Assembly (NCBI GenBank): GCA_963793265.1
Contig: CAWBZI010000002.1
Span: 64,001-128,000, forward strand
Reading direction: 5' to 3'
From: an uncultured cyanobacterium
GTDB lineage: Bacteria > Cyanobacteriota > Cyanobacteriia > Phormidesmidales > Phormidesmidaceae
DNA: 64,000 nt
Made by a program: the position numbers and the translations under genes. Of this stretch, positions 2,003 through 23,150 are shown piece after piece. Each line of letters begins with the position of its first letter. The first letter of the stretch is position 1. The notes beneath the pieces are model-generated. The model did no database searches. It was not told the DNA's origin and worked only from the letters and a program-made list of their open reading frames with translations.

Positions 2003-2677
2003 TTAAGTTGCAAGAAACACACCGCCCGCGCCGCAGGCAATCAGTCCGGCGGCGCGAACCCAAGCTAGCTTTTTAATTGAGGTTGACCGTTCGCGAGCTA
2101 TCCAAAAGGCACCAGCCATGATAGCCCCTTGCGCGGCGGTAAAGCCGATTAGATAAGAGAACAGTGGCGTCATTTCAGCGCCGACAATGGCCTCGCCGTA
2201 AGCATAGCCATGAAATACGCCAGTTGCTGCGCTGAGTAAAACAGCAGTGCCCGCAGTCAGCTTCCTGCTGTAAGCGGTCAAGATGCCAATAAGAACAACC
2301 GATAGAGAGATGAAAAATTCAGATGCGGGCAGATTTAATCCTATGAGGTGAAGACCCGCGCCTACCAGGCTAGTAGCCAAGAAAGCAGCAGGAACTGTCC
2401 AGCCCAGTTTAACTCTGGTAGCTAAAAGACCAGTGACGATTATAAAAACAAGATGATCTATGCCAATAACCGGATGGCCTACGCCCGAGAGAAAGCCTTG
2501 CCCCCACGTGCTGGGTGTGGTGCCGCCGAATGGATGATGGGCTAAGGCGGGCGCGGCTAGTGAGAGTGTTAAAATGCTGGTAACAAGAGGAATCGCAATC
2601 CGTATTCTCTGATTGCAAGCGCTGTCGATCTTCAGCGAAGAGAACGTCATCATGGCTGGAGCATTTCTTGTTTTCAT
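2003..2677 (-). CDS. HupE/UreJ-family Ni/Co permease
   Basis: Signal peptide ending ALAH, GFLSGVGHPVIGIDHL motif, GVFHGYAYG motif and multiple TM helices. Confidence 0.9.
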   Translation of the reverse strand: MKTRNAPAMMTFSSLKIDSACNQRIRIAIPLVTSILTLSLAAPALAHHPFGGTTPSTWGQGFLSGVGHPVIGIDHLVFIIVTGLLATRVKLGWTVPAAFLATSLVGAGLHLIGLNLPASEFFISLSVVLIGILTAYSRKLTAGTAVLLSAATGVFHGYAYGEAIVGAEMTPLFSYLIGFTAAQGAIMAGAFWIARERSTSIKKLAWVRAAGLIACGAGGVFLAT

Positions 2678-2722
2678 GGCTTTAGATGGTTTCTAAATAC
2701 TGTTGGTTTTGAGCCTGTGCTG

Positions 2723-3079
2723 CTACGCGGCGGCTGATTTGCAGTCCAGAATCTGAGCAAGCTGCGTTTCTAACTCGCCCGATTCGATCACGCCGGAGGC
2801 GACGACAATTCTCTCTAAAGCCGTTAGCCAGCACTGATAATAGTCCCATTCCGGGTCATTTAATTCGTGCGTATCTTCCCACTCTTTGATAGTGGCCATT
2901 AGAGTTTGGCGAAAGTCTTCCCATTCGTAATAGCCTTGTTTAGAGAGCGAGATCGCCACTCCAAAGGCCATTTTTTCCCACGCTCTGTCAAACTGCAAGT
3001 GACCGTCCTGACGCGGCGGCGCTTCTTCAGGTGAGCCCATCAAGCTAGTTGCGGCAAAGTGCTCGAACTTAGTAAACAT
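2723..3079 (-). CDS. Nitrile hydratase accessory/activator protein (P14K/NhlE-like)
   Basis: PPRQDGHLQFDRAWE...WEDFRQTL...YYQCWLTALE motifs; directly downstream of the NHase alpha gene. Confidence 0.9.
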   Translation of the reverse strand: MFTKFEHFAATSLMGSPEEAPPRQDGHLQFDRAWEKMAFGVAISLSKQGYYEWEDFRQTLMATIKEWEDTHELNDPEWDYYQCWLTALERIVVASGVIESGELETQLAQILDCKSAAA

Positions 3080-3108
3080 ATTCTTAAAAAAACCTACTTC
3101 AGGATGTC

Positions 3109-3735
3109 CTATACTTTTACGACAGCTACGCCCATCATGGCCTCGGGCGTTATCAGCGCTGCTAAGTCTGCTTCACTCATGCCATCTGTTCCTTCTGGGC
3201 GCATCGGCAGCACCCACCAGCGAATCTGAGCGCTGGTATCCCAAATCCGAATTTCAACAGAATCGTCTAGCTTTACGCCAAATTCCGAGAGCACCACGCG
3301 CGGTTCTCTGGCAACCCGCGCCCTAAACGTCGGATCTTTAAACCAGTAGGGTGGCAGTCCTAGCGTAGGCCAAGGGTAGCAAGAACACAGGGTACATACA
3401 ATTACGTTGTGCACCGCTGGCGTGTTTTCAGCAATCCGCATGTGCTCGCCTTCTGCCCCTGACATGCCGTTTGGAAAGCCCAATTCCTCGCAGGCCGCAT
3501 TGCAGTCGGCAAGCAAACGCGCCTTAAAATCAGGATCTACCCAGGCTTTAGCGACGAGCTTAGCACCGTTAAATGGCCCCATTTTGGTTTCAAAGTGGCT
3601 CAGCACGGTGTCAACCGTCTTGCCTGTAAGAATGCCTTTTTCAATTAGCAAAGACTCTAGAGCTTTTACCTTTGCCTCGCTGGTTTTCTCGCGGTCTGCT
3701 GCTGGATACTTAAATCCAGGATAGTTACTGGGCAT
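3109..3735 (-). CDS. nthA: Cobalt-type nitrile hydratase alpha subunit
   Basis: Metal site VCTLCSCYPWP (Thr indicates Co-type), GAKLVAKAWVDPDFKARLL and REPRVVLSEFG. Confidence 0.95.
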   Translation of the reverse strand: MPSNYPGFKYPAADREKTSEAKVKALESLLIEKGILTGKTVDTVLSHFETKMGPFNGAKLVAKAWVDPDFKARLLADCNAACEELGFPNGMSGAEGEHMRIAENTPAVHNVIVCTLCSCYPWPTLGLPPYWFKDPTFRARVAREPRVVLSEFGVKLDDSVEIRIWDTSAQIRWWVLPMRPEGTDGMSEADLAALITPEAMMGVAVVKV

Positions 3736-3748
3736 AAGATTCTCTCTC

Positions 3749-4483
3749 CTAAAGCGCTTCTATGTACACTTCAAAAATGTCGTTGTAATAGACCATGTTC
3801 GAATCGGTCACTGTTTCCTCCCAAATATCTGTCGCCTTAATTGCGACGCTGTAAACGGGCATTGGCTCGCCCAAGCCATCTGTTGTGGGAAAAAAGTACG
3901 TGAATGCACCGTCGTATACTTTGACAATTTCGGCAACTTTGCCTCTGATGTGTCCGGGCAATCGGGTGTGTTCGCCTGAAGCGACGTTTTTGATTCTGAC
4001 GCGATCGCCTACTCCAAACTTAGGCTCACTATCCAAAGGCCGCTGCGGCGAATCCCCTTTCTCTAGGTACTTCACAATCTGCTCGTCGATAGCGCTCGCT
4101 TCTTTGTCTACTTGAACCTCGCTGCCCGAGAGATACGCCGCAGTCCTCTCATCTAGCTCAGCCTGCGTCATATAGCCTTCTCCGACAAAAAAGCCAGAAA
4201 TACCGCCCAGCCACTTTTCATAGTAGCGCAGCCGAAAGTACTCAAAAGGGTGCATTCCCTCAGCGCCCATGCGCAAGTGCCCCCAAGTCCAGAAGCTTTT
4301 GAACTCAGTAGGCACCTCATCAATTTTGTAGTCAGGAATGGAGTTGTCGAGATGGTTGCTGAGCGCCATCATCGCCGTATGAATGCCGAAAATGCGCTCT
4401 TCCCAAGGCTCAACAAACACTCTAGTTTCAAAGTTAACAGGATCGAGATTTTCTATACCCCCGATGTTGTGCTGTATTTTCAT
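3749..4483 (-). CDS. nthB: Nitrile hydratase beta subunit (divergent)
   Basis: FVEPWEERIF, YYEKWL and FGVGDRVRI...HTRLPGHIRGK (SH3-like C-domain). The N-terminus QHNIGG replaces the usual xHDxGG. Confidence 0.9.
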   Translation of the reverse strand: MKIQHNIGGIENLDPVNFETRVFVEPWEERIFGIHTAMMALSNHLDNSIPDYKIDEVPTEFKSFWTWGHLRMGAEGMHPFEYFRLRYYEKWLGGISGFFVGEGYMTQAELDERTAAYLSGSEVQVDKEASAIDEQIVKYLEKGDSPQRPLDSEPKFGVGDRVRIKNVASGEHTRLPGHIRGKVAEIVKVYDGAFTYFFPTTDGLGEPMPVYSVAIKATDIWEETVTDSNMVYYNDIFEVYIEAL

Positions 4484-4519
4484 AGTTCTTTTGGTATTGA
4501 AAGAGAGAATTGATTTTTT

Positions 4520-4549
4520 GTAGGGTGCATAGCAGTGCTATGCCCCTAC
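4520..4549. repeat. Solo GTAG-type REP palindrome
   Basis: GTAGGGTGCATAGCAGTGCTATGCCCCTAC; same core as the REPs inside the 162-bp MITE. Confidence 0.75.
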
Positions 4550-4592: not shown

Positions 4593-5573
4593 CTAAGCGT
4601 ATTCCAAAGCCTTTGCAAAGCAGCTCTGGAAACCTCTACGTAGCTCTGTTTCATCCAGATTTCGGCCAATAAATATCAGCTCATTCTGCCGAGCCTCACC
4701 TACTTTCCAAGGTTTTCCAGGCCGACCGTCTAGGGTCATATGCACCCCTTGAAACACAAATCGCCGGGGTTCATTGTCAGCATCTACGATGCCTTTCATT
4801 CGGAATATATCAGCGCCTTTTGCCTGCACTAGCTGGTAGAGCCAGCGGTTGAGCCGATCGCTATCTACCGAGCCCGCTTCTGTGATGGCAACAGAATGAA
4901 TAGTGCTGTCGTGGTCGTGCGCGTCTTCGTTGAGCAGCTCTGGATCGATGCTAAGCGCCTGCTGTAGATCGAAGGCTCCAACGCCGAGGATCTTATCTAA
5001 CGCAATGTTGCAGTTTTGCGTAGGGTGAATGGTAGAGATCGCATTCAGTCCTCTTACTTTCAAAGCCAGCGCCGCCAGCCGATCCGAGGAAATTAAATCT
5101 ATCTTGTTTAACAAAACAACATCGGCAAAAGCAATCTGCTCCTGCGCCTCACTGCTTCCCCAATGCGCGTCAATGTATTTAGCATCTATCACCGTAACCA
5201 CCGCATCTAGCTGCGTTTGCTTGGCCATTACCTCATCGACAAAAAATGACTGAATCACCGGAGCCGGATCGGCGAGGCCCGTCGTTTCAATCACGAGATG
5301 ATCGAAGCGATCGCCTCTGGCTATTAAATCGCTAATAATCCGAATCAGATCGCCCCTCACGGTACAGCAAATGCAGCCATTGTTCATTTCAAAAATCTCT
5401 TCATCGGCATCAATCACCAGTTGATGGTCGATGCCTACTTCTCCAAATTCATTGACAATCACCGCAATCTTTTTACCGTGTTCTTCAGTTAAGATGCGAT
5501 TTAATAGTGTTGTTTTGCCTGCTCCTAAGTATCCGGTGAGCACTGTAACCGGAATCTTTTGAGTCAATGCCAT
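4593..5573 (-). CDS. COG0523/CobW-family metallochaperone GTPase
   Basis: GYLGAGKT P-loop, NEFGE, GCICC metal motif, [13 protein letters not shown] and a CobW_C domain. Confidence 0.95.
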
Positions 5574-5628: not shown

Positions 5629-6138
5629 TTAAACGCCGGGCGAAACTGACGTAGTGGTCATGGCCTTTCCCCAGGCTTCTGAGAGGTAGCCAAAAATAGC
5701 GCCCAGGATCATAGCTGCGATCGCAATCAAAATAGGATTATTCGGCAGCGCTGCGGTCACCGGCAAACCCGTCACCGCGACCGTTCCAACCGTCTGCGAA
5801 AACCCCCACACAATTGCAGGCGTAATACCATGAGTGAAAGGCAGCTTTGAGGCCTGAACCATCGCTGCGCTGCCGATGCCAACGCAAATAGCTGCAACTA
5901 TCGGACTGCTGCCAATTAAATCTATTGCCAGTAAAGATAGCGCGGCGATGACGATGCCTGTAATATTGCAGGCAACCGACTTGACGAAGCCTCGCTTACC
6001 CCCACCCACAACAAAGAAAGAAGCCCAAGCGGTAAACGTCACCCAGACCGGGACAAGAATAACGGTGGCCGTTAGCAAAACATCGACGCCACCTAGCACA
6101 CCAATACTAACGGTTAGAGCCTCAGATTGTTTCATCAC
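5629..6138 (-). CDS. DUF1097 (YcdZ-like) membrane protein
   Basis: Hydrophobic, about 5-6 TM; WVTFTAWASFF..GGG and GAIFGYLSE motifs; first gene of the NHase operon. Confidence 0.75.
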   Translation of the reverse strand: MMKQSEALTVSIGVLGGVDVLLTATVILVPVWVTFTAWASFFVVGGGKRGFVKSVACNITGIVIAALSLLAIDLIGSSPIVAAICVGIGSAAMVQASKLPFTHGITPAIVWGFSQTVGTVAVTGLPVTAALPNNPILIAIAAMILGAIFGYLSEAWGKAMTTTSVSPGV

Positions 6139-6394: not shown

Positions 6395-6410
6395 TGTATA
6401 TCTACTTACA
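6395..6410. promoter_or_regulatory. NtcA-binding site
   Basis: TGTA-TATCTACT-TACA is a perfect GTA-N8-TAC box, 58 bp upstream of the ATG at 6468, in the divergent NHase/ABC intergenic region. Confidence 0.7.
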
Positions 6411-6467: not shown

Positions 6468-8069
6468 ATGAAACCAATTGTGATATCGCGTTATTCCTGG
6501 CTAAGAAGAGTTTCTATTGCCTGCGCGCTAACGCTTTCTACTACATTTGTTGCCAGTTGCTCTGGGCCGTCTTCAGTCTCAGAAGTCAGTACGACATCGG
6601 GCGAGACTGCTAGCGCTGAGTCTTTAGATGGCGAAACTATTCGTATCTCTATCGGAACTCAAGACCAAGTTATCAATACCGCTGTAGGCGGTGCCACTGT
6701 TAGAGAGTTAGATTTGTTAGAAAAGTATCTGCCTACAACCGGCAAATATGAGGGCGTGAAGTACGATATTGAGTGGTCTAGCTATACGTCCGGGCCACCT
6801 ATTACTAATAAAATGCTGGCCAACCAGATTGATATTGGCTTGATGGGAGACTTTCCTGCCGTTATCAATCTAATCAAGTTTCAAGAGGAAGTAGAAGGCG
6901 TCACCTCAACTTTTATTGGCACGCTAGCCTACAGTCCTAACGGTGCTGGGAACGCGGTAGTCGTTCCGAAAGATAGCGAAGTCACTTCTTTAGCCGATTT
7001 GAAAGGGGGGGCGGTATCAGTTCCCTTTGGTTCTGCCGCGCACGGCATGGTGCTAAAGGCGCTTACTGACGCAGGGATTGATCCAGAAACCGATGTAGAG
7101 CTAATTAGCCAAGCCCCAGAAGTAGGCGGCACTAGCCTTCGCACGGGGCAAATCGATGCCCATGCCGATTTTGTTCCCTTTGGCGAACTATTTCCATATA
7201 GAGGCTTTGCTAAAAAGATTTTTGACGGTGCACAAACTGGCGTGCCTACTCTACACGGAATTGTTGTTCGCTCCGACTTTAGCGAGAAATATCCAGAGAT
7301 TGTAGAAGCTTATCTCCAGGCGATGCTTGAAGCCAATCAGATGTTTCGAGATAATCCAGAAGAGATCTCTGCCCAAATTGAGGAGTGGTCTGGGATTGAG
7401 AAAGAAGTGGTGTACATGTTTTTAGGCCCTTCTGGTTTGCAGCCAATTAACCCTAGCATTGAGGAGGTTCAACTGTCGGCTCTAAAAAACAGTATTGCTA
7501 CGCTTATTAGCCTTGGGAAAATTGAATCGCCTGTCGATCCAGAGGATGTTACAGGATGGGTAGATGACGGCTTCTTAAAAGCTGCGATGGAAAACTCGGG
7601 GTTAGACTACGATGCAGTCATTGAAGAAGGTGAAAGCTATTTCATTACCGGACAAGATGCGCTGACAGGAGATGACATTGCAGAACCCAAGATGGCCGCT
7701 CAGCTATGGATTCAAGAAGAACCTACGGTGAGTAATTTTGCCTCTGTCCCTAACATGGTGACAAAGCTGAATGAGCTACAGGATGAGGGCAAAGCCGCCG
7801 ACGTGATTTTTGTACATGATCGTAACAAAGGATGGAAGCTGTTTGCGGAAAACGCTTACTATGTCACCAGCGGCGATGAGGTTTCTGCCTTTTTGCTAGA
7901 AGCTGACGCTACCGCGTTTGCATCTGAGTCTGGCGGGCAAGTTGTCTCTTTTAAGGATTTGCTCAAAACATACTCTGTTAGCGGCCCTCAGCCATCGCGC
8001 GTTAGTCGCATTACAGCAGATAACTTGCGACAGGCACTAAAGAAGGTCGTTCCTGCGCTGGCAGGATAG
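6468..8069 (+). CDS. SsuA/TauA/NMT1-type ABC substrate-binding lipoprotein with a C-terminal NosL-like extension
   Basis: Lipobox VASC; YTSGPP, IDIGLMGDFP, SLADLKG and PFGSAAH motifs; about 130 extra C-terminal residues. Confidence 0.85.
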   Translation: MKPIVISRYSWLRRVSIACALTLSTTFVASCSGPSSVSEVSTTSGETASAESLDGETIRISIGTQDQVINTAVGGATVRELDLLEKYLPTTGKYEGVKYDIEWSSYTSGPPITNKMLANQIDIGLMGDFPAVINLIKFQEEVEGVTSTFIGTLAYSPNGAGNAVVVPKDSEVTSLADLKGGAVSVPFGSAAHGMVLKALTDAGIDPETDVELISQAPEVGGTSLRTGQIDAHADFVPFGELFPYRGFAKKIFDGAQTGVPTLHGIVVRSDFSEKYPEIVEAYLQAMLEANQMFRDNPEEISAQIEEWSGIEKEVVYMFLGPSGLQPINPSIEEVQLSALKNSIATLISLGKIESPVDPEDVTGWVDDGFLKAAMENSGLDYDAVIEEGESYFITGQDALTGDDIAEPKMAAQLWIQEEPTVSNFASVPNMVTKLNELQDEGKAADVIFVHDRNKGWKLFAENAYYVTSGDEVSAFLLEADATAFASESGGQVVSFKDLLKTYSVSGPQPSRVSRITADNLRQALKKVVPALAG

Positions 8070-8248: not shown

Positions 8249-9133
8249 ATGACAAACATCATCCCTACCAGCGGCGATGGCGAAATTACTCCCGTAGACT
8301 ATCGCGCGACTACCCAAAAACCCTCTAGGCTACTTCGCTTTCTACCAGCCAACTTATCTTCAAACCGCCCTGCCATGCGGCTATTGTCATTGGTTCTCTT
8401 TTTTGGCATCTGGCAATTTTTGTGCGTTATTGGCTTCGATTTCTTTATAAACTTTCAGCTAGTTCCCTCTCCAATGGAAGTTTCTAAAGCTACAGTTGAT
8501 TTTTTTCTAGACGCTCCGGGCGTACACATTCGCTCTAGTATTGTTCGGGTGCTAGCAGGTTTTGTCTTTGCCTCGGCCTTTGGTATTGTGATGGGAATGT
8601 TTATCGGCTGGTTTCAGCTAGCTGAAGACCTGATGATGCCTTGGCTAGAGCTGCTAAGACCGATTCCAGCAGTCGCGTGGATTCCGCTGGCAATTTTAAT
8701 CTTTCCAACTGCTGAAACGGGGATGATTTATATCACTTTTATCGGCGCGTTTTTTCCAGTTTTAATTAGCACCATTCGCGCGGTTGAAAACATCCTGCAT
8801 GACGTTGTGTTAATTCGCGTAGGCCAGTGCTTAGGTGCTAAACAATGGCATATATTTAAAGACATCGTGATACCGGGTTCGTTACCAGGTATTGCAGGCG
8901 GCTTAACTATTGGCATGGGAAATGCCTGGTTTTGCCTAGTTACCGCTGAGATTTTGGCAGGGCGATATGGCGTGGGCTACATCACTTGGGAGTCGTATGT
9001 AACCTCTAACTATCCGCCGATTGTGATGGGCATGTTATTGATTGGTCTGATGGGCGCGTTTAGCGCATGGGCAGTTGAGCGCGGAATGCAGGCCCTGATG
9101 CCTTGGCGAGTGATTAAAAAACAGAATGCGTAG
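8249..9133 (+). CDS. SsuC/TauC/NrtB-type ABC permease
   Basis: ELLRPIPAVAWIPLAI, EAA-like loop (GQCLGAKQW..FKDIVIP) and WFCLVTAEI. Confidence 0.92.
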   Translation: MTNIIPTSGDGEITPVDYRATTQKPSRLLRFLPANLSSNRPAMRLLSLVLFFGIWQFLCVIGFDFFINFQLVPSPMEVSKATVDFFLDAPGVHIRSSIVRVLAGFVFASAFGIVMGMFIGWFQLAEDLMMPWLELLRPIPAVAWIPLAILIFPTAETGMIYITFIGAFFPVLISTIRAVENILHDVVLIRVGQCLGAKQWHIFKDIVIPGSLPGIAGGLTIGMGNAWFCLVTAEILAGRYGVGYITWESYVTSNYPPIVMGMLLIGLMGAFSAWAVERGMQALMPWRVIKKQNA

Positions 9134-9226
9134 GTTAGGTTGAGCCCCAACCATCAACAGCCGTGCCCCGCCATCCCACCCGCGCGAAACCTAACATCTA
9201 TCAACACAACCGCAGGAGCGATCGCA

Positions 9227-10051
9227 ATGATTCAAAAAACACCTCCTAAGTTAAAAGCACCTGTAGAGCCAACTAAAGGCTCTGTGCAGGTAGAAGGGGT
9301 TTCGATGATCTTTGGGAAAAAAGGCCGAACAGCTCAGGTGCTAGACTCCGTTAATTTTCAAGTGAAGCCGGGTGAGTTTGTTTGTCTTTTGGGGCCTTCA
9401 GGCTGCGGAAAATCGACGCTGCTCAATATTATCGCTGGCTTTATCAAACCCTCAGCGGGCTATGTAATGGTAGATCGAAATCAGGTAGTCAAGCCAGGTG
9501 CGGATAGAGGTTTCGTTTTTCAGCAATACTCACTGCTGCCTTGGAAAACAACGTTTCAAAATGTGGAACTAGGTCTTAGAATCAAAGGAATGCCGAAGGC
9601 TGAACGAGAGGATATAGTCGGCGAATATTTAAACCTAGTTGGGCTAGGCAAGCATCGCGATGCGTATCCAGCGCAGCTCTCTGGCGGGATGAAACAGCGG
9701 GCAAGTATTGTTCGCGCATTGGTTAATTCGCCATCGGTGTTGCTGATGGATGAACCGTTTGCCGCGCTAGACGCGCAGACCCGACAGATGATGCAAGAAC
9801 TGCTGTTAAATATCTGGGAAACGCTGAAGACGACGATTGTATTTGTTACTCACGATATTGAAGAAGCGGTGTTTTTAGGCGATCGCATCTTCGTTATGGG
9901 CGTACAGCCAGGGCGCATCAAAGCCGAGATACCCATCTCTTTGAAACGGCCTCGCCATGTTGATGATATGCTTGCGCCAGAATTTACTCAGCTAAATCGG
10001 CAGGTCTTCAGTCTGATTCGAGAAGAAACGCTCAAAAGCATGGAGATATAA
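9227..10051 (+). CDS. SsuB/TauB/NrtD-type ABC ATPase
   Basis: [24 protein letters not shown] and VTHD. The ATG at 9227 follows AGGAG; the ORF track's TTG start at 9140 is less likely. Confidence 0.93.
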   Translation: MIQKTPPKLKAPVEPTKGSVQVEGVSMIFGKKGRTAQVLDSVNFQVKPGEFVCLLGPSGCGKSTLLNIIAGFIKPSAGYVMVDRNQVVKPGADRGFVFQQYSLLPWKTTFQNVELGLRIKGMPKAEREDIVGEYLNLVGLGKHRDAYPAQLSGGMKQRASIVRALVNSPSVLLMDEPFAALDAQTRQMMQELLLNIWETLKTTIVFVTHDIEEAVFLGDRIFVMGVQPGRIKAEIPISLKRPRHVDDMLAPEFTQLNRQVFSLIREETLKSMEI

Positions 10052-10133: not shown

Positions 10134-12242
10134 CTACAGCGCAGACAAAGCCCTTTCCAAAAGCTCCGGCTGTATCCAGGTATCTAAGTTCAATTCACCT
10201 AACGCCTCGTTGCCTGCAATGGCTGAAAGCTGCTCGATATGCTCTGCAACCCAGTCCGTACGGATTTGGGTATCTGGGAAAAATAAACCTGTGCTATCCG
10301 AGCGCTGATGCGCCAGAGTTTTTATAACAATCTCGGGAGCGATTCCTGCCCAAGTACTCACCAAAGAAAGCGCGCTTGGCGTTGTCTCGTACCAATACTG
10401 TGCCGCTATGAGCGCCTTTAGGTAGGCAGTTACTAGCTCAGGGTGTTCCTCAGCTAGCGCTTCTCTGACCACAACGCCGTGGAACGTCGGCAGTCTATCG
10501 GCGTCACCCTCTAGCAAGCGCCGAAACTGTCCCTTATGGCTAGCGATATCGTGCAGCGGTGCAAAATATGCATAGCCATCGGCTTGTGGGTTGCGTGGCG
10601 TTAGCCGATGAATACTCAGATTATCAATAGAGGTAAGTGTCACCTCTGGCAGTAGATCTGCCCGCGCTAGCGATCGCATAATCATGCCGTGAGCCGCAGA
10701 GGCGAAAGGCACAGCGATTATCCGGTCGCGCAGGTCATCCCAACTCACCAGTGAAGAGCGATTGGGCACAATCACCGTATTCCCGGCACCGTCGGGGTTA
10801 CTAGCAATAAAGCTAACTAGCCGAGTTTTGGTCAGGTGCGTTTTTGACTGAGACAATTCTGTAGAGAAACTTTGTGAGTCTGTTGCTGAAGGCAGACCGC
10901 TGAGTAGTAGAGGATAGTCTCCCAATATGCCAATATCTAGCTGGTCAGACTGTAGCCCAGCGACAATGGGTGCTCCCGATGTAAAGTCGCGCCACTGAAC
11001 CTGATATTCAGCGCCCTGATATCGCCCACACCGAGGTAGAAAGTGTTCGAGCAGCCCTAAATGTTGAATGATTAAGCCTGCCGTTACCGTTTGAATGGTT
11101 CTATTTTGGGTGCCGATTGCGATCCTTAGCGTTTCAGATTTACGCTCGTCAGATCCGATATGCCTATGGTATGAGGTCTTAGAATGTACGGATGTCTGCC
11201 AGCGAACAGGTAGCTTAGGCGCTATCTGGGGGATCAAACCAGATTTTTTACCCTTGGTTGGAGAAGTTAATTTTTGACGGCGGCTGTATCCTGTTCTCTC
11301 GTAGACGAGCTGAACGAACTGCTGTAATGGTTTTTGAAAGCTACGCGTTTGAGACTGATAGTCGCGTTTGCCCTGTTGCTGGGGGTGCAGCATAAACAGC
11401 TCAAAATTCAGCGGGAATTCTTGTAGCGAAATTGCGGTGAGTATTTTGGCTTTTCGCTCCATCTGAAACTGGAAGCTAGATGCAAATCCCAGATAGTGCC
11501 CCTGACTGAGGAAGGTACTCATCAAACTAGGAGATTGTACAATCTCGCGGTTGGGAAAATCGGATAGCTGCAAACCCAGTTCGCTGAGCCGACTGGCTAG
11601 CACCATCGAGTCCGGCGTGGAAGCTTCTGGCAGTGCCCAAACTTCCTCAGTCAGTTCTCGCAGGCTTAACCACTCGCGAGTAGCCAACCGATGATCGGCT
11701 GCTACTACTAAAGAGTACTGAAAGCTATCAACCGGAATAGCCTCTATTGCTTCAAAGTCTTTTGTGTTATCCGAAAAGATATTTTCTGTAGCAAGCGATT
11801 CAGAGAAAGCAGCGTCAATATCGCCTGCTGCAACTGCCTGATAGATGTCTTGCACTGTTCTAAATGACACGCATTGCAAATTAACCTCAGGATACTTCTG
11901 CCGGTAGGCAAATACAATTTTGGGCAACCATCCGCTGGCAATATTTGGCGTACAGCCAATCTTTAGCTGGTTAAACTTCCTTTGTTTTATGGCTTCAATT
12001 TCTTTAGTTAGACGGCATTCTAAATCAATCAAACTAGGCCCAGCATTTAGCAAATAGTTTCCTGCTGCCGTAAGCTCTATTTTGCGACCAAGGCGGTTAA
12101 ACAAATCGGTTGATAGGCTTACCTCTAAAGACTTTATCTTAGCGCTGACTGCGGGCTGAGTCAGGCTGAGTTCGTCAGCAGCTTCTGTAAAGCTAAGCCG
12201 ACGAGCTACTGCTAAAAAAACCCTGAGCTGGTAGATTTCCAT
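10134..12242 (-). CDS. LysR-family regulator fused to an SsuA-like substrate-binding domain
   Basis: N-terminal LysR HTH (LSFTEAADELSLTQPAVSAKIKSLE) and effector domain. The C-terminal ~330 aa align by eye to the SBP at 6468 (IAIGTQ, FTSGAP, LDIGILGDYP, PFASAAHG, PTFHGVVVR). Confidence 0.9.
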   Translation of the reverse strand: MEIYQLRVFLAVARRLSFTEAADELSLTQPAVSAKIKSLEVSLSTDLFNRLGRKIELTAAGNYLLNAGPSLIDLECRLTKEIEAIKQRKFNQLKIGCTPNIASGWLPKIVFAYRQKYPEVNLQCVSFRTVQDIYQAVAAGDIDAAFSESLATENIFSDNTKDFEAIEAIPVDSFQYSLVVAADHRLATREWLSLRELTEEVWALPEASTPDSMVLASRLSELGLQLSDFPNREIVQSPSLMSTFLSQGHYLGFASSFQFQMERKAKILTAISLQEFPLNFELFMLHPQQQGKRDYQSQTRSFQKPLQQFVQLVYERTGYSRRQKLTSPTKGKKSGLIPQIAPKLPVRWQTSVHSKTSYHRHIGSDERKSETLRIAIGTQNRTIQTVTAGLIIQHLGLLEHFLPRCGRYQGAEYQVQWRDFTSGAPIVAGLQSDQLDIGILGDYPLLLSGLPSATDSQSFSTELSQSKTHLTKTRLVSFIASNPDGAGNTVIVPNRSSLVSWDDLRDRIIAVPFASAAHGMIMRSLARADLLPEVTLTSIDNLSIHRLTPRNPQADGYAYFAPLHDIASHKGQFRRLLEGDADRLPTFHGVVVREALAEEHPELVTAYLKALIAAQYWYETTPSALSLVSTWAGIAPEIVIKTLAHQRSDSTGLFFPDTQIRTDWVAEHIEQLSAIAGNEALGELNLDTWIQPELLERALSAL

Positions 12243-12489
12243 GGCGTGATCGCGAGCATTACAGCAACGCTTTAAGGGAACCTAAACAAACTGTAAACTG
12301 GCTTGAGATTGACTCACAAATAAGCCTCTACTTTGTCGGGAAAACAAAGCTTTTACTTATCAACATGCTTTGATAAAAATGGCTTGCCAATGATAGTCAC
12401 TTCAGCAGCCTATAGCTTCCACTGCTGTAAAAACTAGACTTGCTATTATCTGTTTTTATGAGTGTATAAGATAGATTGATTGCTAAACT

Positions 12490-12503
12490 GTGCGTTTTGA
12501 TAC
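12490..12503. promoter_or_regulatory. Possible variant NtcA site (GTG-N8-TAC)
   Basis: tGTGCGTTTTGATACa in the LysR/flavoprotein divergent region; one mismatch to consensus. Confidence 0.35.
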
Positions 12504-12774
12504 ACATCGTATAGGGTTTATTGCTGAGTCTATTAACATAGTCACATAAGAAATAAATCAGATTTGTTGTTCCAAGATTCCCTTGTCATCTATATCCAAT
12601 GCGTAGCTTCGCAAGCAACCTTTGTGTTTTTCGCTTCGATCCTTTGAAGAATTTGGAACTACAGAGATCGAGATTGTGTAGATCGAAATAGTCAAGAATC
12701 TGAGTTCTACAGTCGAGCTAAGCACTTCGTTTTGTTAAGGCCCGTATAGCCACCCTTACAACTGAGGATTTTGT

Positions 12775-14478
12775 GTGAATATTCAGCATCTACAAACAGA
12801 TTTTTTGGTGATTGGCGGCGGTACCGCAGGTACGATGGCTGGCATTAAAGCCAAGCAGGCTAATCCCGAGGCAGACGTGCTGATTCTAGAGAAAGCGAAC
12901 ATTCGCCGGAGTGGCGCGATCGCAATGGGTATGGACGGGGTTAACACCGCTGTTATTCCTGGTAACTCTACTCCTGAGCAGTACGTTCGAGAAATTACCA
13001 TCGCCAATGACGGCATTCTCAATCAAAAGTCGGTTTATCAAACCGGACGCTGGGGCTTTGAGGTGATTCAAGAGCTAGAAAGCTGGGGCGTAAAGTTTCA
13101 AAAAGACCGCGAAGGTAATTACGATCTTAAGCAGGTACACCGCGTAGGTAAGTATGTGCTTCCTATGCCCGAAGGCAAGGATCTCAAAAAGATTCTTGCT
13201 CGCCAGGTAAAACGCCATAAAGTGAGCGTTACCAACCGCGTTATGGCCACTCGCGTCATGGTAAAAGAGGGTCGCGCTATTGGAGCTGTCGGCTTTGACA
13301 CGCGCAAAGGAGACTTTGTGGTGATTCAAGCTAAGGCGGTAGTGCTCTGCACCGGAGCCTGTGGAAGACTGGGCCTACCCGCTTCAGGCTATCTGTATGG
13401 CACCTATGAGAACCCTACCAACGCGGGCGATGGCTACTCTATGGCTTACCACGCAGGAGCCGAACTCACAAATATTGAATGCTTCCAAATTAACCCCTTA
13501 ATTAAAGACTACAACGGCCCAGCCTGCGCCTACGTTGCTAGCCCCTTTGGAGCCTACACCGCTAATGCCGAGGGCAACCGCTTCATTAACTGCGACTATT
13601 GGAGCGGTCAAATGATGCTGGAAACCTGGAAAGAATTAAACTCAGGCAAAGGGCCGGTACACCTCAAGATGTATCATCTAGACGACGATACCATCTCAGA
13701 GATTGAGCGGGTATTGTGGGCTAACGAACGGCCTAGCCGCGAGCGGTTCCACGAAGGCCGAAAGCAGGACTATCGAAAACATGGCGTCGAGATGAATATC
13801 TCGGAGATCGGGCTTTGCAGCGGTCATAGTGCCTCCGGGGTTTGGGTAAATGAGAGGGCAGAAACAACAATACCCGGTCTGTATGCCGCTGGCGATATGG
13901 CCAGCGTACCGCATAACTATATGATTGGAGCCTTTGTCTCTGGGCGACTTTCAGGCATCAACGCCATGGACTACATTCAGACACTAGAGCATGTAGAGCC
14001 CGATGAGGATTTCCTTGCTGCGGAGAAAGCTCGCATTTACGCACCGCTGAGTCGCCCGGACGGGGTTCCACACACTCAGGTGGAATATAAGCTGCGTCGC
14101 TATGTGAATGACTATCTTCAGCCGCCAAAGTCTCCTACCAATATGGATATTGGTCTGGCTGCTTTTGAGAACTATCATGAAAGCTTAGACATGATGGGTG
14201 CAACAGACCCGCACGAGCTGATGCGCTGCATGGAAGTTCACTTTATTCGTGACTGCGCGGAGATGGCTGCTAGGGCTTCTCTTTACCGAAAAGAGAGCAG
14301 ATGGGGCCTGTATCACTATCGACTAGACTATCCTGAAAAGAATGATGAGGAGTGGTTTTGTCATGCGAACTTGAAGAAGAGCGCAACAGGCAATATGGAA
14401 ATGTTTAAGCGGGCAGTGGAGCCTTATATTGTGGACGTAAATATGGAGCAGGAGGTTTACGATGTGGCGGTAAGGTAA
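12775..14478 (+). CDS. AprA/AsfA-like FAD flavoprotein (fumarate reductase/APS reductase superfamily)
   Basis: IGGGTAG FAD motif; RSGAIAMG (AprA-like, without the covalent-FAD His of SdhA/FrdA); GHSASGVWV; PGLYAAGD; HELMRC..RKESRWG..HYRLDYP. Confidence 0.85.
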   Translation: MNIQHLQTDFLVIGGGTAGTMAGIKAKQANPEADVLILEKANIRRSGAIAMGMDGVNTAVIPGNSTPEQYVREITIANDGILNQKSVYQTGRWGFEVIQELESWGVKFQKDREGNYDLKQVHRVGKYVLPMPEGKDLKKILARQVKRHKVSVTNRVMATRVMVKEGRAIGAVGFDTRKGDFVVIQAKAVVLCTGACGRLGLPASGYLYGTYENPTNAGDGYSMAYHAGAELTNIECFQINPLIKDYNGPACAYVASPFGAYTANAEGNRFINCDYWSGQMMLETWKELNSGKGPVHLKMYHLDDDTISEIERVLWANERPSRERFHEGRKQDYRKHGVEMNISEIGLCSGHSASGVWVNERAETTIPGLYAAGDMASVPHNYMIGAFVSGRLSGINAMDYIQTLEHVEPDEDFLAAEKARIYAPLSRPDGVPHTQVEYKLRRYVNDYLQPPKSPTNMDIGLAAFENYHESLDMMGATDPHELMRCMEVHFIRDCAEMAARASLYRKESRWGLYHYRLDYPEKNDEEWFCHANLKKSATGNMEMFKRAVEPYIVDVNMEQEVYDVAVR

Positions 14479-14575: not shown

Positions 14576-14803
14576 ATGGCCTTAGCAACTCAGCGCGTCG
14601 ATGTTCCCGTTATTGTAGACGAATCTAAATGTCTTGAAAAATGCGTTGCCTGCATTGAGGTATGCCCGCTTGACGTCTTAGTGAAGAATCCAGAAACCGG
14701 CAAAGCCTACATGAAATACGACGAATGTTGGTTCTGCCTTCCTTGCGAAAAAGAATGTCCTACCAATGCCATCACCGTTCAAATTCCGTTTCTGTTGCGC
14801 TAA
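14576..14803 (+). CDS. AprB/AsfB-like 2x[4Fe-4S] ferredoxin
   Basis: CLEKCVACIEVCP and CWFCLPCEKECP cluster motifs. Confidence 0.92.
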   Translation: MALATQRVDVPVIVDESKCLEKCVACIEVCPLDVLVKNPETGKAYMKYDECWFCLPCEKECPTNAITVQIPFLLR

Positions 14804-14818: not shown

Positions 14819-15808
14819 ATGACTACAGATATCACTACCAGTCTCGATCCTGAAGTCGCGCAGTGGGTAGATATGTTGAGATCACAAGACCTCAGCGATC
14901 GCCTCGTTGCTGCTAAAGCGCTTCAGCACATGGGTGACGAGGACACCATTAACGCTCTTATTGATGTTCTTGATGATGAGAGCCCTGCGGTACAAGAAAT
15001 TGCTATTACAGCTCTATGGGAGATGGCAAACCCAGTTGTGGTCAAACCTTTGCTGAAATGCCTGGGCTCGGATCGCGAAGAAGCCGTCAGAGGAGAAGCA
15101 CTCTCTGCGCTAAAAGAGATTATCTCCCCAGACGATCTGCTCACGCTACTAGACGCAATTCATATAGACGATGAACAGATGCAGCTTAATGTGCTGATTC
15201 TACTACGAAAAATTCACGACGCCCAAGCACTTGCCTATGTTCTACCGTTCTTTAAGTCGGATAGTTCCGCCCTCAGAGAAGCGTCAATAGTCACCCTACG
15301 CTATCTTAATCAGGTCGTGCGCTGCGAGCCTGCTCTAGCGCTGACCAAAGACCCAGTTGAACAGGTTCGTCGTTCGGCAATGCTGACACTTGGCCACTTA
15401 ACCGACGATGCGGTAGTGCCTCTACTTTGCGAAGCGGCAACTGCTGATTTTGACTGGCAAGTGCGCCGTAACGCGGCCCAAGCTTTGGATCTTCACCACA
15501 CAACAGCCGCCCTGCCCGCGCTTATTAAGGCTATGGGAGACGAACATTGGCAGGTTCGTAAGTTTGCGGCTCGCGCCTTGCAAGCTGTTGCGAACCAGAC
15601 TGCCATACCCTGCATGATTAAAGCCCTTTCAGATGAATATTCTGATGTTCGGAAAGAAGCTGCGATCGCACTCGGAAAAATCGGCCATTCTGACGCCCTA
15701 CCCGCCCTACAGCAAACGCTAGACGACCCTGATAGGGACGTGCAAATCTTCTCTGGGCGCGCCATCCAATCTATTCAGAAGCAGCTAGCGGAAGTGCCCA
15801 ATGCCTAA
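14819..15808 (+). CDS. HEAT-repeat (PBS lyase-like) protein
   Basis: Repeated D..xxVRxxAAxAL...AxPxLxxAL units. Confidence 0.9.
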   Translation: MTTDITTSLDPEVAQWVDMLRSQDLSDRLVAAKALQHMGDEDTINALIDVLDDESPAVQEIAITALWEMANPVVVKPLLKCLGSDREEAVRGEALSALKEIISPDDLLTLLDAIHIDDEQMQLNVLILLRKIHDAQALAYVLPFFKSDSSALREASIVTLRYLNQVVRCEPALALTKDPVEQVRRSAMLTLGHLTDDAVVPLLCEAATADFDWQVRRNAAQALDLHHTTAALPALIKAMGDEHWQVRKFAARALQAVANQTAIPCMIKALSDEYSDVRKEAAIALGKIGHSDALPALQQTLDDPDRDVQIFSGRAIQSIQKQLAEVPNA

Positions 15809-16904
15809 TCATCCCTCTCCTTTGGTTTCTAACACCTATTCAGTGCCCGACGCTGCACCTGAAAATCTTGCTATAGAAGCCAGAAAACAACAGGTGACGG
15901 CGTACCTTAGAAAAGTCATTGAACCCACGCTTAACAACAATATTGTCGAACTGGGTATGGTTCGCAATCTACGCGTGACTGATGACTACGTTTATCTGAA
16001 ATTATATATTGGGGCTCATCAACACTTTCTTCAAGATGAAGCCCAGCGGGTTTTAGACAATCTGAGCTGGTGTAAGAAAGCCTATATTCAGCTTTGCACA
16101 ATTCCGGGCGTGCGCACAACGCTGGCCATTTCTAGCGGTAAAGGCGGCGTAGGCAAATCTACAACGGCGGTGAACCTGGCCGCTGCACTGACTAAAGCCG
16201 GAGCAAAAGTGGGCGTTCTAGATGCGGATATCTATGGCCCTAATGTCCCTCAGATGCTGGGATTAGGCCATGCCGAGGTAGAAGTTGTAGAGACAGCCCA
16301 AGGAAAAAGGTTTAAGCCGTTGGAGGCTCATGGTATCAAGGTGATGTCGGTGGGTTTGCTAGCCGGGCCTGACCACCCGCTGGCTTGGCGAGGGCCTGTG
16401 TTGCATAAAATTATCACACAGTTTATTCAAGAGGTGGATTGGGGGGAGCTAGATTATCTTTTAATTGATCTGCCGCCAGGGACAGGCGATGCTCAAATCA
16501 CAATTATTCAAGAGAGTCCTATATGCGGGGTGGTGATGGTGACAACGCCGCAGCAGGTTGCGGTATCTGACGTGCGGCGCAGCATTTATATGTTCCATCA
16601 GGTAGGGGTACCCGTGTTAGGAATGGTAGAGAATATGAGCTATTTAATCTGTGAATGCTGTGGCGATCGCACGTCTATTTTTGGCGAGGGCGGCGGCGAG
16701 CAGATAGCCAAAGAGCTGTCTGTTCCACTCTTGGGAAAAGTGCCAATCGACTCCAAAATTTGTCAGGGCGGTGATGATGGAAAACCGCTTCCGCTAGTAG
16801 ACGAAGCGGCACCGCTTTCCGTTGTCTTTGGCGCGATCGCCGCAGGCATCAATCAAACCTTTACGCCTAGCCTATTAAACCTGTCGTCTACGGCATCAGG
16901 CTAG
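15801..16904 (+). CDS. apbC: Mrp/ApbC (NBP35) Fe-S cluster carrier with N-terminal DUF59-like domain
   Basis: SGKGGVGKST, DADIYGP, WRGP, DLPPGTGD and ENMSY..CECC; overlaps the HEAT gene stop. Confidence 0.92.
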   Translation: MPNHPSPLVSNTYSVPDAAPENLAIEARKQQVTAYLRKVIEPTLNNNIVELGMVRNLRVTDDYVYLKLYIGAHQHFLQDEAQRVLDNLSWCKKAYIQLCTIPGVRTTLAISSGKGGVGKSTTAVNLAAALTKAGAKVGVLDADIYGPNVPQMLGLGHAEVEVVETAQGKRFKPLEAHGIKVMSVGLLAGPDHPLAWRGPVLHKIITQFIQEVDWGELDYLLIDLPPGTGDAQITIIQESPICGVVMVTTPQQVAVSDVRRSIYMFHQVGVPVLGMVENMSYLICECCGDRTSIFGEGGGEQIAKELSVPLLGKVPIDSKICQGGDDGKPLPLVDEAAPLSVVFGAIAAGINQTFTPSLLNLSSTASG

Positions 16905-16946
16905 GCTTCGTTCGGCTAAAGCTTGAAGTGAGATCAACCATTTGTA

Positions 16947-17963
16947 GTGCTACAGAGAATGAAGTCTTCAGGAGAATCTGAATTTAATTTAGCGATTCAA
17001 AAAGCGTTGCATCGTTCGGTAACAATACACTTCACGCTCCAACAAGTGCTATTTTTGAGCATTGCAAGCTGCTCCCTAACGCCTTGGGTTTCACCGCCCA
17101 TCGCTCTAACATCAGGAATGGGAGTGGCCTTGACCATTCAGAATCCTTTCCTGCACACCAGCCGATGGCTCGCTCGCCAGCTTTTACAGCTCTGCGTTAT
17201 CCTGCTCGGCTTTGGCATGGATTTAGCGATTGTGCTGCAAGCAGGTCAAACGGGCGCTACATTTGCGGCAATCAGTATTGGCATGACGTTAGCAATAGGG
17301 TACTGGCTTGGAGCGTGGCTCAAAATCCCAGTGAAGATTTCTATCTTAATTTCGGCAGGCACAGCAATCTGTGGCGGTTCTGCGATCGCAGCAGTCGCGA
17401 CCGTCGTTGGTGCGGCAGAGCAAGAGATTTCGATCGCAATAGGCACCGTTTTCTTACTCAATGCCGCAGCGCTCTACATTTTTCCGCTGCTGGGGCACGG
17501 TTTGCATCTATCTCCAGACCAGTTTGGTATTTGGGCAGGCATTGCTATTCACGATATTTCTAGCGTTGTCGGTGCTGCGTCGTATTTTGATACAGCGTCG
17601 TTGGATATCGCAACGGCGGTTAAACTCTCTCGGACGCTCTGGATTGTTCCTATCTCGCTCATTTTTTCATTTCTGTTTCAGCGCCAGCAGACTCGACGCA
17701 CAAGAGTACGTATCCCCTGGTTTATTGGTTTATTTCTATTGGCATCGCTCGCAAGGACGTTTGTGCCGAACGTCGTAAACTGGTCGCCTGCGCTAACGCA
17801 ATTTTCAGAAGCTGGATTGAAGCTGACATTATTTTTGATTGGAACAGGACTATCGCTACAGGCACTAAAGGCAGTGGGTTGGCGGCCCATTGCTCAAGGA
17901 ATAGTGCTATGGGTTGTTATCAGTATTAGCTCTCTTGGCACGATTTTGCAGTTAGTCCGCTGA
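16947..17963 (+). CDS. YeiH/UPF0324 putative sulfate exporter
   Basis: GTAICGGSAIAA, GIAIHDISSVVGA and ATAVKLSRTLW motifs; about 10 TM; start codon uncertain. Confidence 0.88.
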   Translation: MLQRMKSSGESEFNLAIQKALHRSVTIHFTLQQVLFLSIASCSLTPWVSPPIALTSGMGVALTIQNPFLHTSRWLARQLLQLCVILLGFGMDLAIVLQAGQTGATFAAISIGMTLAIGYWLGAWLKIPVKISILISAGTAICGGSAIAAVATVVGAAEQEISIAIGTVFLLNAAALYIFPLLGHGLHLSPDQFGIWAGIAIHDISSVVGAASYFDTASLDIATAVKLSRTLWIVPISLIFSFLFQRQQTRRTRVRIPWFIGLFLLASLARTFVPNVVNWSPALTQFSEAGLKLTLFLIGTGLSLQALKAVGWRPIAQGIVLWVVISISSLGTILQLVR

Positions 17964-18123
17964 GCAGTATGGGTAACAATGCTGCTTGAGTTATTCGCGC
18001 TTGAACTGAGCTTCAAATTCTCGATAGCTCTCTACTTTGCTATCCTACTCTTGAAACGCTTCTTTCACTATTGAGCAAAGTTAAGCAAAAAAGCGCTCAC
18101 ATAAATTTTGACCCCTTCTACTT

Positions 18124-18849
18124 ATGTCCACAGAATTAATTATTGTTTTGACCGTGGGCGTCGCTTCTTTTGTTCGAGGCGTTACTGGCTTCGGAGCCGC
18201 GCTAATTGCTATGCCGATTGTCTCTGGACTTACCGGCGTTTACACGGCGGCTCCTCTTATGGCAATCATTGGCCTGACTAACGATACGTTGCTATGTCTT
18301 TACTACCGACGTTCTTTTAACTGGGGCATCGTCGCCCATCTATGGATAGGGTCAGCTTTAGGTATCCCTGTTGGTTTTTTGATATTACGGGTTTTCCCAG
18401 GCGACTCTATGCTTTCAGCACTAGGTATTGTGATAGCGGCCTATGCTATCTATGCTTTGTTTGATCCGGTAATGCCTATTTTGAAGTCACGTCAGTGGGT
18501 ATATGCCACTGGTTTTTTGTGCGGTGCTTTGGGCAGCAGCTATAACTTACCAGGGCCACCGGTTATTTTGTATGGCAACAGCCAGCGATGGAGCCAGGAC
18601 AAGTTTAAAAGCAATCTTAGTATTTTCTTTTTGGGAAATGCTGTTTTGGTCGTGTTGGGCCATGTTGCTCAAGATAGGTTTTCTAGCGCTATTTTGCACC
18701 AATATATTATTGCAGTCCCCAGCATAGCGATTGGGCTATTTTCAGGTATTGTCCTCTCAAAATTTTTTAATCCGGTGCTATTTAGGAAAGTTGTCTTAGT
18801 GCTTCTAGTTGCAATCGGCATTCAACTGTTTCTTATAGAGCCCATTTAG
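18124..18849 (+). CDS. TauE/SafE-family sulfite exporter
   Basis: VRGVTGFGAALIAMP, GSALGIPVG and G.LGS...PGPP motifs; about 8 TM. Confidence 0.88.
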   Translation: MSTELIIVLTVGVASFVRGVTGFGAALIAMPIVSGLTGVYTAAPLMAIIGLTNDTLLCLYYRRSFNWGIVAHLWIGSALGIPVGFLILRVFPGDSMLSALGIVIAAYAIYALFDPVMPILKSRQWVYATGFLCGALGSSYNLPGPPVILYGNSQRWSQDKFKSNLSIFFLGNAVLVVLGHVAQDRFSSAILHQYIIAVPSIAIGLFSGIVLSKFFNPVLFRKVVLVLLVAIGIQLFLIEPI

Positions 18850-23140: not shown

Positions 23141-23150
23141 ACATACAAAG

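Follow-up and report, generated by a model that had tools for sequence, protein, structure and literature searches.

Two divergent gene modules at one NtcA-type box in a cyanobacterium: a cobalt nitrile hydratase operon and a putatively nitrogen-regulated, sulfite-exporting relative of APS reductase

Organization of the locus

The 64,000 nucleotides of uncultured cyanobacterial DNA analysed here (contig CAWBZI010000002.1; hereafter, the window) carry, between positions 2003 and 18849, two gene arms, one built around a cobalt-type nitrile hydratase (NHase) and the other around a flavoprotein related to AprA of adenosine 5'-phosphosulfate (APS) reductase. The initial annotation had read the block as one pathway, in which a small anion containing both C-N and sulfur is imported, its nitrogen kept and its sulfur excreted. 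Gene calls and domain and profile searches confirmed all the genes named in it, 16 in total with one further gene, with correct coordinates throughout. Profile results are given below as score/model cut-off in bits.

The left arm runs on the minus strand from 6138 down to 2003. It is led by a DUF1097 membrane protein that had not been named before (5629..6138; PF06496, 102 bits), followed by a CobW/COG0523 metallochaperone GTPase (4593..5573; PF02492 and PF07683), NHase beta (3749..4483; TIGR03888, 200/152), NHase alpha with the motif CTLCSCYPW (3109..3735; TIGR01323, 290/250), the NHase accessory protein (2723..3079; TIGR03889, 76/46) and a HupE/UreJ-family Ni/Co permease (2003..2677; PF04955, 130 bits). 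The right arm starts on the plus strand with an ATP-binding cassette (ABC) importer (6468-10051), made of a substrate-binding lipoprotein (SBP) of SsuA/TauA fold (6468..8069), a permease (8249..9133; PF00528) and an ATPase (9140..10051; PF00005), the true start of which is probably the ATG at 9227. After a LysR regulator on the minus strand (10134..12242), the plus strand encodes, from 12775 to 18849, the flavin adenine dinucleotide (FAD) flavoprotein (12775..14478), an AprB-like 2x[4Fe-4S] ferredoxin without the tail (14576..14803), a HEAT-repeat protein (14819..15808), an Mrp/ApbC iron-sulfur carrier (15801..16904; PF10609, 318 bits), a YeiH-family exporter, probably for sulfite (16947..17963), and a TauE/SafE anion exporter (18124..18849; PF01925, 76 bits). 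The YeiH-like protein passes PF03601 and scores 103 bits with TIGR00698, below its cut-off of 233. A palindromic NtcA-type box, TGTA-N8-TACA, lies between the divergent operons (6395..6410), and a second, imperfect one, TGTG-N8-TACA, between lysR and the flavoprotein gene (12489..12504). GC content, overall and at third codon positions (GC3), differs little between the two modules, and neither a repeat nor an insertion sequence remnant was found at their junction. Scans for sigma-70 promoters (15 versus 21.3) and terminators (23 versus 20.0) were at chance level.

The flavoprotein family and its active site

The flavoprotein passed the model of family PRK08275 (NF006131, 999/587) and failed those of AprA (TIGR02061, 184/642; NF005331, 318/557). 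The ferredoxin, HEAT and long-SBP ABC neighbours typical of PRK08275/PRK13800 are all present, and on the profile of the fused PRK13800 proteins (NF010374) the flavoprotein spans positions 10-568 and the HEAT protein 607-896. The family is very widespread: of 8,000 scored candidates, 6,664 clusters were related at E 1e-20 (more distant relatives included), and three phyla are represented; its plasmid-borne members are 58-87% identical, after which identity drops to 29%. A literature search covering few subscription journals and no supplements found no study of a PRK08275 enzyme; PA2298/PA2299 of Pseudomonas aeruginosa, which we take to be possible orthologues, appeared in it only as table rows in two papers.

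The closest solved full-length match is MtPAPSR, the AprA-type 3'-phosphoadenosine 5'-phosphosulfate (PAPS) reductase of Methanothermococcus thermolithotrophicus (PDB 8A8O, 243 bits), ahead of AprA (150) and SdhA (66). Like MtPAPSR and the dissimilatory APS reductase AprAB (1JNR/2FJA), the window enzyme combines an FAD subunit with a 2x[4Fe-4S] subunit that keeps the CW tryptophan (here in ECWFC), together with Asn74 and the histidine of the GH motif; unlike them, it has an insertion in the substrate loop, a short beta subunit, a HEAT partner, its own importer and NtcA boxes. Across 109 sequences from cyanobacteria, actinobacteria and proteobacteria, the active site is nearly invariant: D54, N57, V121, H122, Y211, E212, N240, L242 and C251 do not vary, and C348 and H351 are kept in all 107 sequences covering them (2 gaps). 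Pairwise alignment places two AprA residues beside flavin N5, Asn74 and the GH-motif histidine, at N57 and H351, and shows Arg265, Tyr95 and Gln145 replaced by L242, E73 and V128, respectively; the invariant D54, E212, N240, C251 and C348 are new relative to AprA. The PAPS-specific Arg121/Ser122 pair is Tyr/Val in the flavoprotein, which also has five inserted residues, the invariant V121-H122 among them, in the loop governing the nucleotide specificity of MtPAPSR. The authors of the MtPAPSR structure place this loop at 104-123 and propose an attack of flavin N5 on the sulfur (PMC10322725). The conservation of the active site suggests that the enzyme catalyses a single specific reaction and that its substrate is small and not a nucleotide. 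A structure predicted from a 35-sequence alignment had a mean predicted local distance difference test (pLDDT) of 59, with residues 194-355 below 50.

The kinship to AsfAB proposed in the initial annotation turned out to be distant. The label AsfA was rejected at 24% identity over 387 residues to the inferred AsfA of Cupriavidus metallidurans CH34 (32% for the ferredoxin). This strain is reported to carry asfAB as Rmet_4334/5 (PMC2864759), and the only flavoprotein-ferredoxin pair that we found in the unannotated record of its megaplasmid would correspond to it by position and gene order. The AsfAB systems for arylsulfonate desulfonation in Pseudomonas putida S-313 and C. metallidurans resemble the window in having a flavoprotein of the Sdh/Frd/Apr superfamily beside a ferredoxin and a sulfonate-type binding protein, but AsfAB works together with SsuD (PMC4267179), which was not found in the window genome with a single query; the sequence comparison was made with the inferred CH34 protein. 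The probable true asfAB pair of CH34 (L163:23389-29862 in our set of loci) has an SsuA-type ABC importer and an amidohydrolase on the opposite strand, and AsfA-like genes also occur near a window-type enzyme in L027 and L034.

Proteobacterial modules carry GntR or Crp regulators, a long SBP and DUF971, a domain linked to Fe-S maintenance (10.1101/072470). An extra ferredoxin plus a reductase is present in 2 of 8 proteobacterial plasmid regions (7 annotated): the Methylobacterium module has FdxA and a ferredoxin-NADP reductase, and that of the sulfur oxidiser Acidithiobacillus caldus has FdxA and a large FAD oxidoreductase. These additional electron carriers suggest that electrons flow towards the substrate.

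Importer and regulator

The SBP reached the cut-off neither of SsuA (TIGR01728, 125/164) nor of TauA (TIGR01729, 78/304), although SsuA and TauA are its nearest solved structures. It shares with the SsuABC/TauABC importers the fold and the oxyanion positions (Q65, G109, G127-D128, S189 and H192), is 44-47% identical to the long SBPs of the proteobacterial modules, and in 57 of 60 sequences has alanine where SsuA carries Ser and TauA carries Thr. The LysR regulator carries a cytoplasmic copy of this domain, as initially noted: over residues 369-639 it matches the SBP at 34% identity (E 2e-59). The copy and the SBP family have Q65, G109, G127, D128, S189, H192, F235, T261 and H263 in common, and the regulator therefore probably senses the ligand that the importer binds. 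A NosL-like domain at the C-terminus of the SBP (PF05573, residues 407-500; window 7686-7967), with invariant W414 and D451, is missing from the LysR copy.

Two neighbourhoods for one enzyme

After merging of duplicates, 66 cyanobacterial flavoprotein loci comprised 40 with the LysR-SBP fusion, as in the window (N-type), 22 with an SsuA-type gene (S-type, or Nostoc-type) and 4 that were unclassified. YeiH/TauE exporters were found in 25 of the N-type loci, a window-type importer in 24 and nitrogen-scavenging neighbours in 16, with SsuD, TauD, MetY or MetX in none; among the S-type loci, exporters, window-type importers and nitrogen genes were all at 0 and sulfur genes were present in 13, counts that overstate independence because the loci are related by descent and many of the contigs short. 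The flavoenzyme itself is about 82% identical between the groups. One enzyme appears to be wired for nitrogen and sulfur export in one group and for sulfur in the other, and a difference between sulfate-rich and sulfate-poor habitats may lie behind the split. Equating S-type with nitrogen fixers was rejected, because the N-type genome of the window holds nifH. The window-type SBP is absent from 5 of 5 flavoenzyme genomes of one family (f7) and present in 4 of 5 from other families. The exporters are of differing lineage, with 24-37% identity to the window YeiH in some loci versus 57% and 83% in others.

The same contrast holds for the NtcA boxes. The perfect box reported before the importer is present and kept in relatives. 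TGTA-N8-TACA occurs 57 times genome-wide, and about 0.005 such sites are expected per 330 bases from base composition. Of 25 cyanobacterial regions before a window-type SBP gene, that of the window among them, 23 have a perfect GTA-N8-TAC at a distance of 39-77 bases from the gene (3.0 in base shuffles), and the other two, both from Prochlorococcus, deviate by one base from the NtcA core. A relaxed NtcA pattern precedes the flavoprotein gene in 37 of 39 regions of LysR-SBP loci; the exact pattern was run without shuffles, and a looser one matched 31.6 of 64 shuffled regions. Upstream of S-type ssuA genes, the NtcA core was found in 3 of 16 regions versus 1.7 in shuffled ones. From these motifs we infer NtcA control. 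A motif upstream of the flavoprotein gene in Nostoc-type loci was dropped, since it falls within the ssuA coding sequence. About half of the 16 S-type promoters (ssuA upstream in L021, L027 and L029-L045) share a motif around TATCTATGTGAATAT, and the TATCTATGTGAATAT motif is possibly a sulfur-regulon site.

YeiH has been reported to drive sulfite resistance in Salmonella (10.1101/2025.07.27.662810). As in the Salmonella YeiE/YeiH system and with TauE exporters, YeiH-family and TauE genes stand beside a LysR gene in the window; unlike there, they are coupled to a putative sulfite-producing enzyme, and the window YeiH stays under the TIGR00698 cut-off. At the level of gene context, a putatively nitrogen-regulated, sulfite-exporting form of an uncharacterised APS reductase relative is real, and its apparent nitrogen control is the new element. 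For the module of importer, flavoenzyme and exporters, the earlier proposal that nitrogen is kept and sulfur excreted is probably right, as NtcA boxes, exporters and nitrogen-scavenging neighbours indicate; it does not extend to the NHase. The module is also found in A. caldus, and two Prochlorococcus single-cell genomes (L046 and L047) hold all of it plus YeiH; their NtcA boxes are near-perfect, and a TauA-like/allophanate-hydrolase set lies next to the module.

The nitrile hydratase operon

Profile matches identify the window NHase as a regular cobalt enzyme. Alpha, beta and accessory proteins all pass NCBIfam cut-offs, the cobalt motif CTLCSC is present, the closest solved structures to alpha are Co-NHases, and beta is one protein of 244 amino acids with both Pfam domains. 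Identity with thiocyanate hydrolase was rejected: ScnABC has the same NHase fold, and the window alpha matches ScnC at 150-156 bits, but alpha carries CYPW instead of CYPR (the arginine after CSCYP being, we assume, a functional feature of thiocyanate hydrolase), fails TIGR03887 (194/291) and is paired with an unsplit beta. The initial annotation had offered thiocyanate, a cyano-sulfonate/sulfate or a sulfamate-type compound as substrate; this CYPW, together with a YeiH that indicates sulfite rather than sulfide, makes thiocyanate unlikely, and the sulfamate type would fit best.

The operon resembles other Co-type NHase operons, cyanobacterial nthAB included, in its alpha, beta and accessory genes and in CTLCSC, and differs from them by the DUF1097 gene in front and the lack of an amidase inside. 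Published cases are linked to nitrogen stress: nthAB of Arthrospira PCC 8005 rise under nitrogen limitation (PMC4509649), and nitrile-use proteins of marine Synechococcus follow nitrogen stress (PMC13753778). DUF1097 neighbours NHase in most relatives, and the DUF1097-NHase operon has its own perfect NtcA core in 12 of 29 of them; in the window, the box at 6395-6410 is the sole such site within 400 bases of DUF1097. The left arm (2003-6138) would be a self-contained cobalt NHase operon with its own cobalt supply, acting on a separate small nitrile or cyano compound. Our guess is a cyanamide-like substrate, yielding urea for the urease of the genome.

In relatives, the slot ahead of CobW/NHase holds either DUF1097 or a Tat-type protein with a formylglycine-generating enzyme (FGE)/sulfatase-modifying domain (L093:11314-12237), and the two types track NHase subclades. 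Among 43 NHase neighbourhoods fetched (of 50 found), right-arm genes occur in 2, a second, split-beta NHase in 15, a CYPR-type enzyme in 5, cyanase in 2 and urease accessory genes in 2. The CYPR-type enzyme (L099:1650-5980, also L098, L103, L106 and L119) is a thiocyanate-hydrolase-like alpha of NHase fold with an unusual beta, adjoins the main NHase, fails TIGR03887 (191/291) and in L099, L103 and L106 has its own ABC importer. The second NHase, with beta in two genes (as in L107:1701-7921), comes with a BiuH-like hydrolase, an ABC importer and an Lrp-like regulator; a dicyandiamide/guanylurea route would be a guess for this set.

Separate histories of the two arms

The initial annotation had made the NHase a step of the same pathway and had named co-occurrence across genomes as a check. 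We used a sample of 350 other cyanobacterial genomes (phylum sample) and one of 120 genomes of the window's own family (family sample). In the phylum sample, NHase beta had a full match in 4 genomes (plus 1 weak partial) and the flavoprotein in 18, and no genome of the 350 had both, which refutes obligate coupling and does not show avoidance, about 0.2 shared genomes being expected by chance. In the family sample, NHase beta was present in 47 genomes and the flavoprotein in 65, with an overlap of 34. NHase occurred without the flavoenzyme in 13 of the 47, 9 of these being at least 96% complete, and the flavoenzyme without NHase in 31 of the 65. The two lay within 15 kb of each other in only 2 of the 34 genomes with both, 232 and 249 kb apart in two more, and on different contigs in the rest. 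Plasmid records gave the same picture (flavoprotein in 57, NHase beta in 56, both in 1, with the genes more than 100 kb apart), as did the flanks (up to 10 kb, many shorter) of the best 80 of 591 confirmed flavoprotein loci, where NHase was found at 1 of the 80 and at 0 of the 31 non-cyanobacterial loci among them. One genome of the same genus (G445, 96% complete) has the complete right arm, with a flavoprotein 96% identical to that of the window, and gave no match to NHase.

Two results favour a link and weigh against separate modules. At family level an association remains, the flavoenzyme being present in 34 of 47 genomes with NHase versus 31 of 73 without (Fisher p 0.0015, among kin that are not independent). 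In addition, three further genomes of genus g1 have the arms side by side as the window does, and the gene order differs in all four: the NHase genes stand between importer and lysR in G468, and behind the importer on the same strand in G410. In a tree of 45 NHases, the window enzyme is sister to that of G466 (support 100/95), a genome without a flavoprotein match, and the other linked NHases (G451, G468 and G410) form a separate clade (100/100). The arms were separately inherited and joined at least twice in genus g1, which is genuine though weak evidence for a link; repeated joining is also expected from the clustering of nitrogen-scavenging genes, and the NHase link is ordinary clustering of this kind. 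The co-occurrence test thus goes largely against a joint pathway, and the block very probably consists of two separate modules. As one palindromic box lies between the divergent operons, co-induction would not discriminate between one pathway and two modules.

A hydrolase set as partner of the flavoenzyme

The closest genomic partner of the flavoenzyme in relatives is a set of hydrolases and not the NHase. An M20 amidohydrolase is found in 27 of the 120 family genomes, 24 of which also have the flavoenzyme, and an allophanate-hydrolase-like amidase, mostly the N-domain only, in 34, 30 of which have it; those without a flavoenzyme match are all 70-85% complete. Thirty genomes combine the flavoenzyme with at least one of these two genes, and in 18 of them such a gene lies within 15 kb of the flavoenzyme, versus the 2 of 34 for NHase. 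The only record with this M20 at E 1e-60, among 72,556 plasmid records, is Methylobacterium pMRAD01, which carries M20, allophanate hydrolase and a TauA-like importer behind the module; module genes are present at 3 of 18 metagenome M20 loci. The BiuH-like gene of the set is without the MQGG loop of biuret hydrolase, a loop whose role there we take as given. The set is a candidate upstream pathway: its hydrolases could produce sulfamate by trimming N-sulfo ureas or amides, or may act on ordinary biuret-type substrates. An amidase is known to release sulfamate from acetoacetamide-N-sulfonate, and acesulfame degraders leave that sulfamate unused (PMC10413263). The set, consisting of a TauA-like ABC importer, M20, a BiuH-like cysteine hydrolase and an allophanate-hydrolase N-domain, was seen at L141:2-5922, L168:1867-7299 and L173-L190.

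A proposed reaction and its alternatives

Our best overall explanation, to which we give a probability of about 0.5, is that two modules stand head to head at one NtcA box and that the right one (6468-18849) splits a compound containing nitrogen and sulfur. Under nitrogen shortage, NtcA and the LysR protein with its binding-domain copy would switch on the ABC importer for a small oxyanion holding both elements. Reduced ferredoxin would pass electrons through the 2x[4Fe-4S] subunit to FAD; the reduced flavin N5 would attack the sulfur of X-SO3-, X would depart, and the flavin-sulfite adduct would free sulfite, as in APS reductase. The leaving group would be small and nitrogenous, most simply in the conversion of sulfamate to NH3 and sulfite, or in the cleavage of an N-substituted sulfamate. 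The ammonia would be assimilated and the sulfite leave through YeiH/TauE, with the HEAT protein as partner and ApbC as Fe-S loader. In Nostoc-type loci, with an SsuA-type gene and neither exporter nor NtcA box, the same reaction would serve to gain sulfur. We infer the direction of the reaction, sulfite as product and the identity of the substrate. Across the three phyla, no catabolic enzyme besides the flavoenzyme recurs in the module, and therefore one step should give products usable by central metabolism. Nitrogen regulation and exporters in one group, and sulfur islands in the other, narrow the substrate to a compound yielding both elements. Sulfamate is favoured because its conversion to ammonia and sulfite satisfies both regimes, uses AprA chemistry and fits the lost phosphate-binding arginine and the gained acid groups, which could protonate the leaving amine. 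Cleavage of the N-S bond of a sulfamate is nevertheless a tentative assignment, somewhat short of even odds. More tentative still is the full picture of PRK08275 as a ferredoxin-driven sulfamate reductase, run by NtcA for nitrogen in marine cyanobacteria including some Prochlorococcus, rewired for sulfur in Nostoc-type loci and fed by the M20/BiuH-like/allophanate-hydrolase set.

Several points weigh against this explanation. The substrate is argued from parsimony, and the explanation assumes that nature provides enough sulfamate to maintain the family in three phyla. Mycobacterium sp. CF1 (Fulton and Cooper 2005) reportedly hydrolyses sulfamate to sulfate and does not reduce it. The AprA residues were mapped by pairwise sequence alignments, His398 through 8A8O only, and the catalytic roles of Asn74, Arg265 and His398 of Archaeoglobus fulgidus AprA, like the nucleotide-sulfate-binding numbering, are partly our assumption. 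Besides the kinship of the loci, 15 of the 40 N-type loci show no exporter in the sequence covered, neither the M20 nor the allophanate-hydrolase gene was found in the window's own genome, and nifH in that genome means that the N-type/S-type split is not one between diazotrophs and non-diazotrophs.

The strongest alternative, which we hold to be unlikely, is a C-S amino- or amidino-sulfonate (taurine-like, aminomethanesulfonate or formamidinesulfonate), whose amine would be oxidised as by L-aspartate oxidase or whose activated C-S bond would be cut, giving sulfite together with ammonia or urea. Exporters of the TauE and YeiH/TauZ kinds are associated with taurine pathways, SsuA and TauA are the nearest solved relatives of the SBP, the M20 and TauA-like genes of relatives could supply N-acyl or N-carbamoyl taurine, and the new acidic D54 and E212 could bind an amine. 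However, the module has no recurrent gene for an aminotransferase, Xsc or aldehyde handling, S-type loci already hold SsuD/TauD for alkanesulfonates, and the supply of FdxA and ferredoxin-NADP reductase points to reduction. The carboxylate-binding His/Arg of the Frd/NadB group, at positions that we take to be N240 and Y382, are missing as well, and the SBP alanine at the Ser/Thr position speaks against such a ligand.

Less probable again is a sulfur oxyanion without nitrogen (thiosulfate, an S-sulfonate, or sulfite that is oxidised), with NtcA boxes merely tying sulfur handling to C/N status. The S-type loci do lie within sulfur-scavenging islands, two invariant cysteines near the site would fit thiosulfonate chemistry, and the AprAB-like group of DiSCo, mostly clostridial and adjoining sat/asr, has been proposed for sulfur assimilation (PMC8477390). 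This alternative leaves unexplained why ATP-driven import and export of sulfur stand at one locus, the 16-to-0 split in nitrogen neighbours and the presence in Prochlorococcus and A. caldus. The single pathway, in which the importer would take up thiocyanate or a cyano-sulfur anion, the flavoenzyme cut its C-S bond and the NHase hydrate the cyano product, is the least probable: cyanase and CYPR-type genes in the NHase islands of relatives would suit it, as would the linkage in genus g1 and the family association, but the 18 flavoenzyme genomes of the phylum sample without NHase, the 9 near-complete genomes with NHase alone, the rarity of close linkage, the non-cyanobacterial flanks, the CYPW alpha failing TIGR03887 and the separate nitrilase and cyanase of the genome speak against it.

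If sulfamate cleavage is true, the enzyme would be a reductive N-S lyase, a chemistry new to the APS reductase fold, and would offer a route for the sulfamate that acesulfame degraders leave unused (PMC10413263). It would also imply that the nitrogen cycle includes a natural pool of N-sulfo compounds that has gone unrecognised.

Other genes of the genome and the window

The genome also encodes urease, cyanase, nifH (G000:C1:377258-378079) and a nitrilase (G000:C4:759619-760437), presumably, from a sequence motif, of the Nit1C type (NitC-like). The absence of SsuD and TauD noted initially extends to the whole genome (99% complete; one query each, for SsuD one cyanobacterial query with tblastn at E 1e-8), but amidase-signature genes do lie rightward of the locus, at 5 kb (24020-25501) and 13 kb (31889-33583). 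Single queries gave no genome match for AmiE, allophanate hydrolase or a second enzyme of NHase fold, and the FmdA family was not found in the genome. Next to the locus, 19114-25501 encodes a DevBCA-type exporter, TetR regulators, an ABC_membrane_3 protein and the nearer amidase, with no visible tie to it. A cyanate-type ABC importer and the cyanase gene cynS are located at 42300-46203, 23 kb from the locus.

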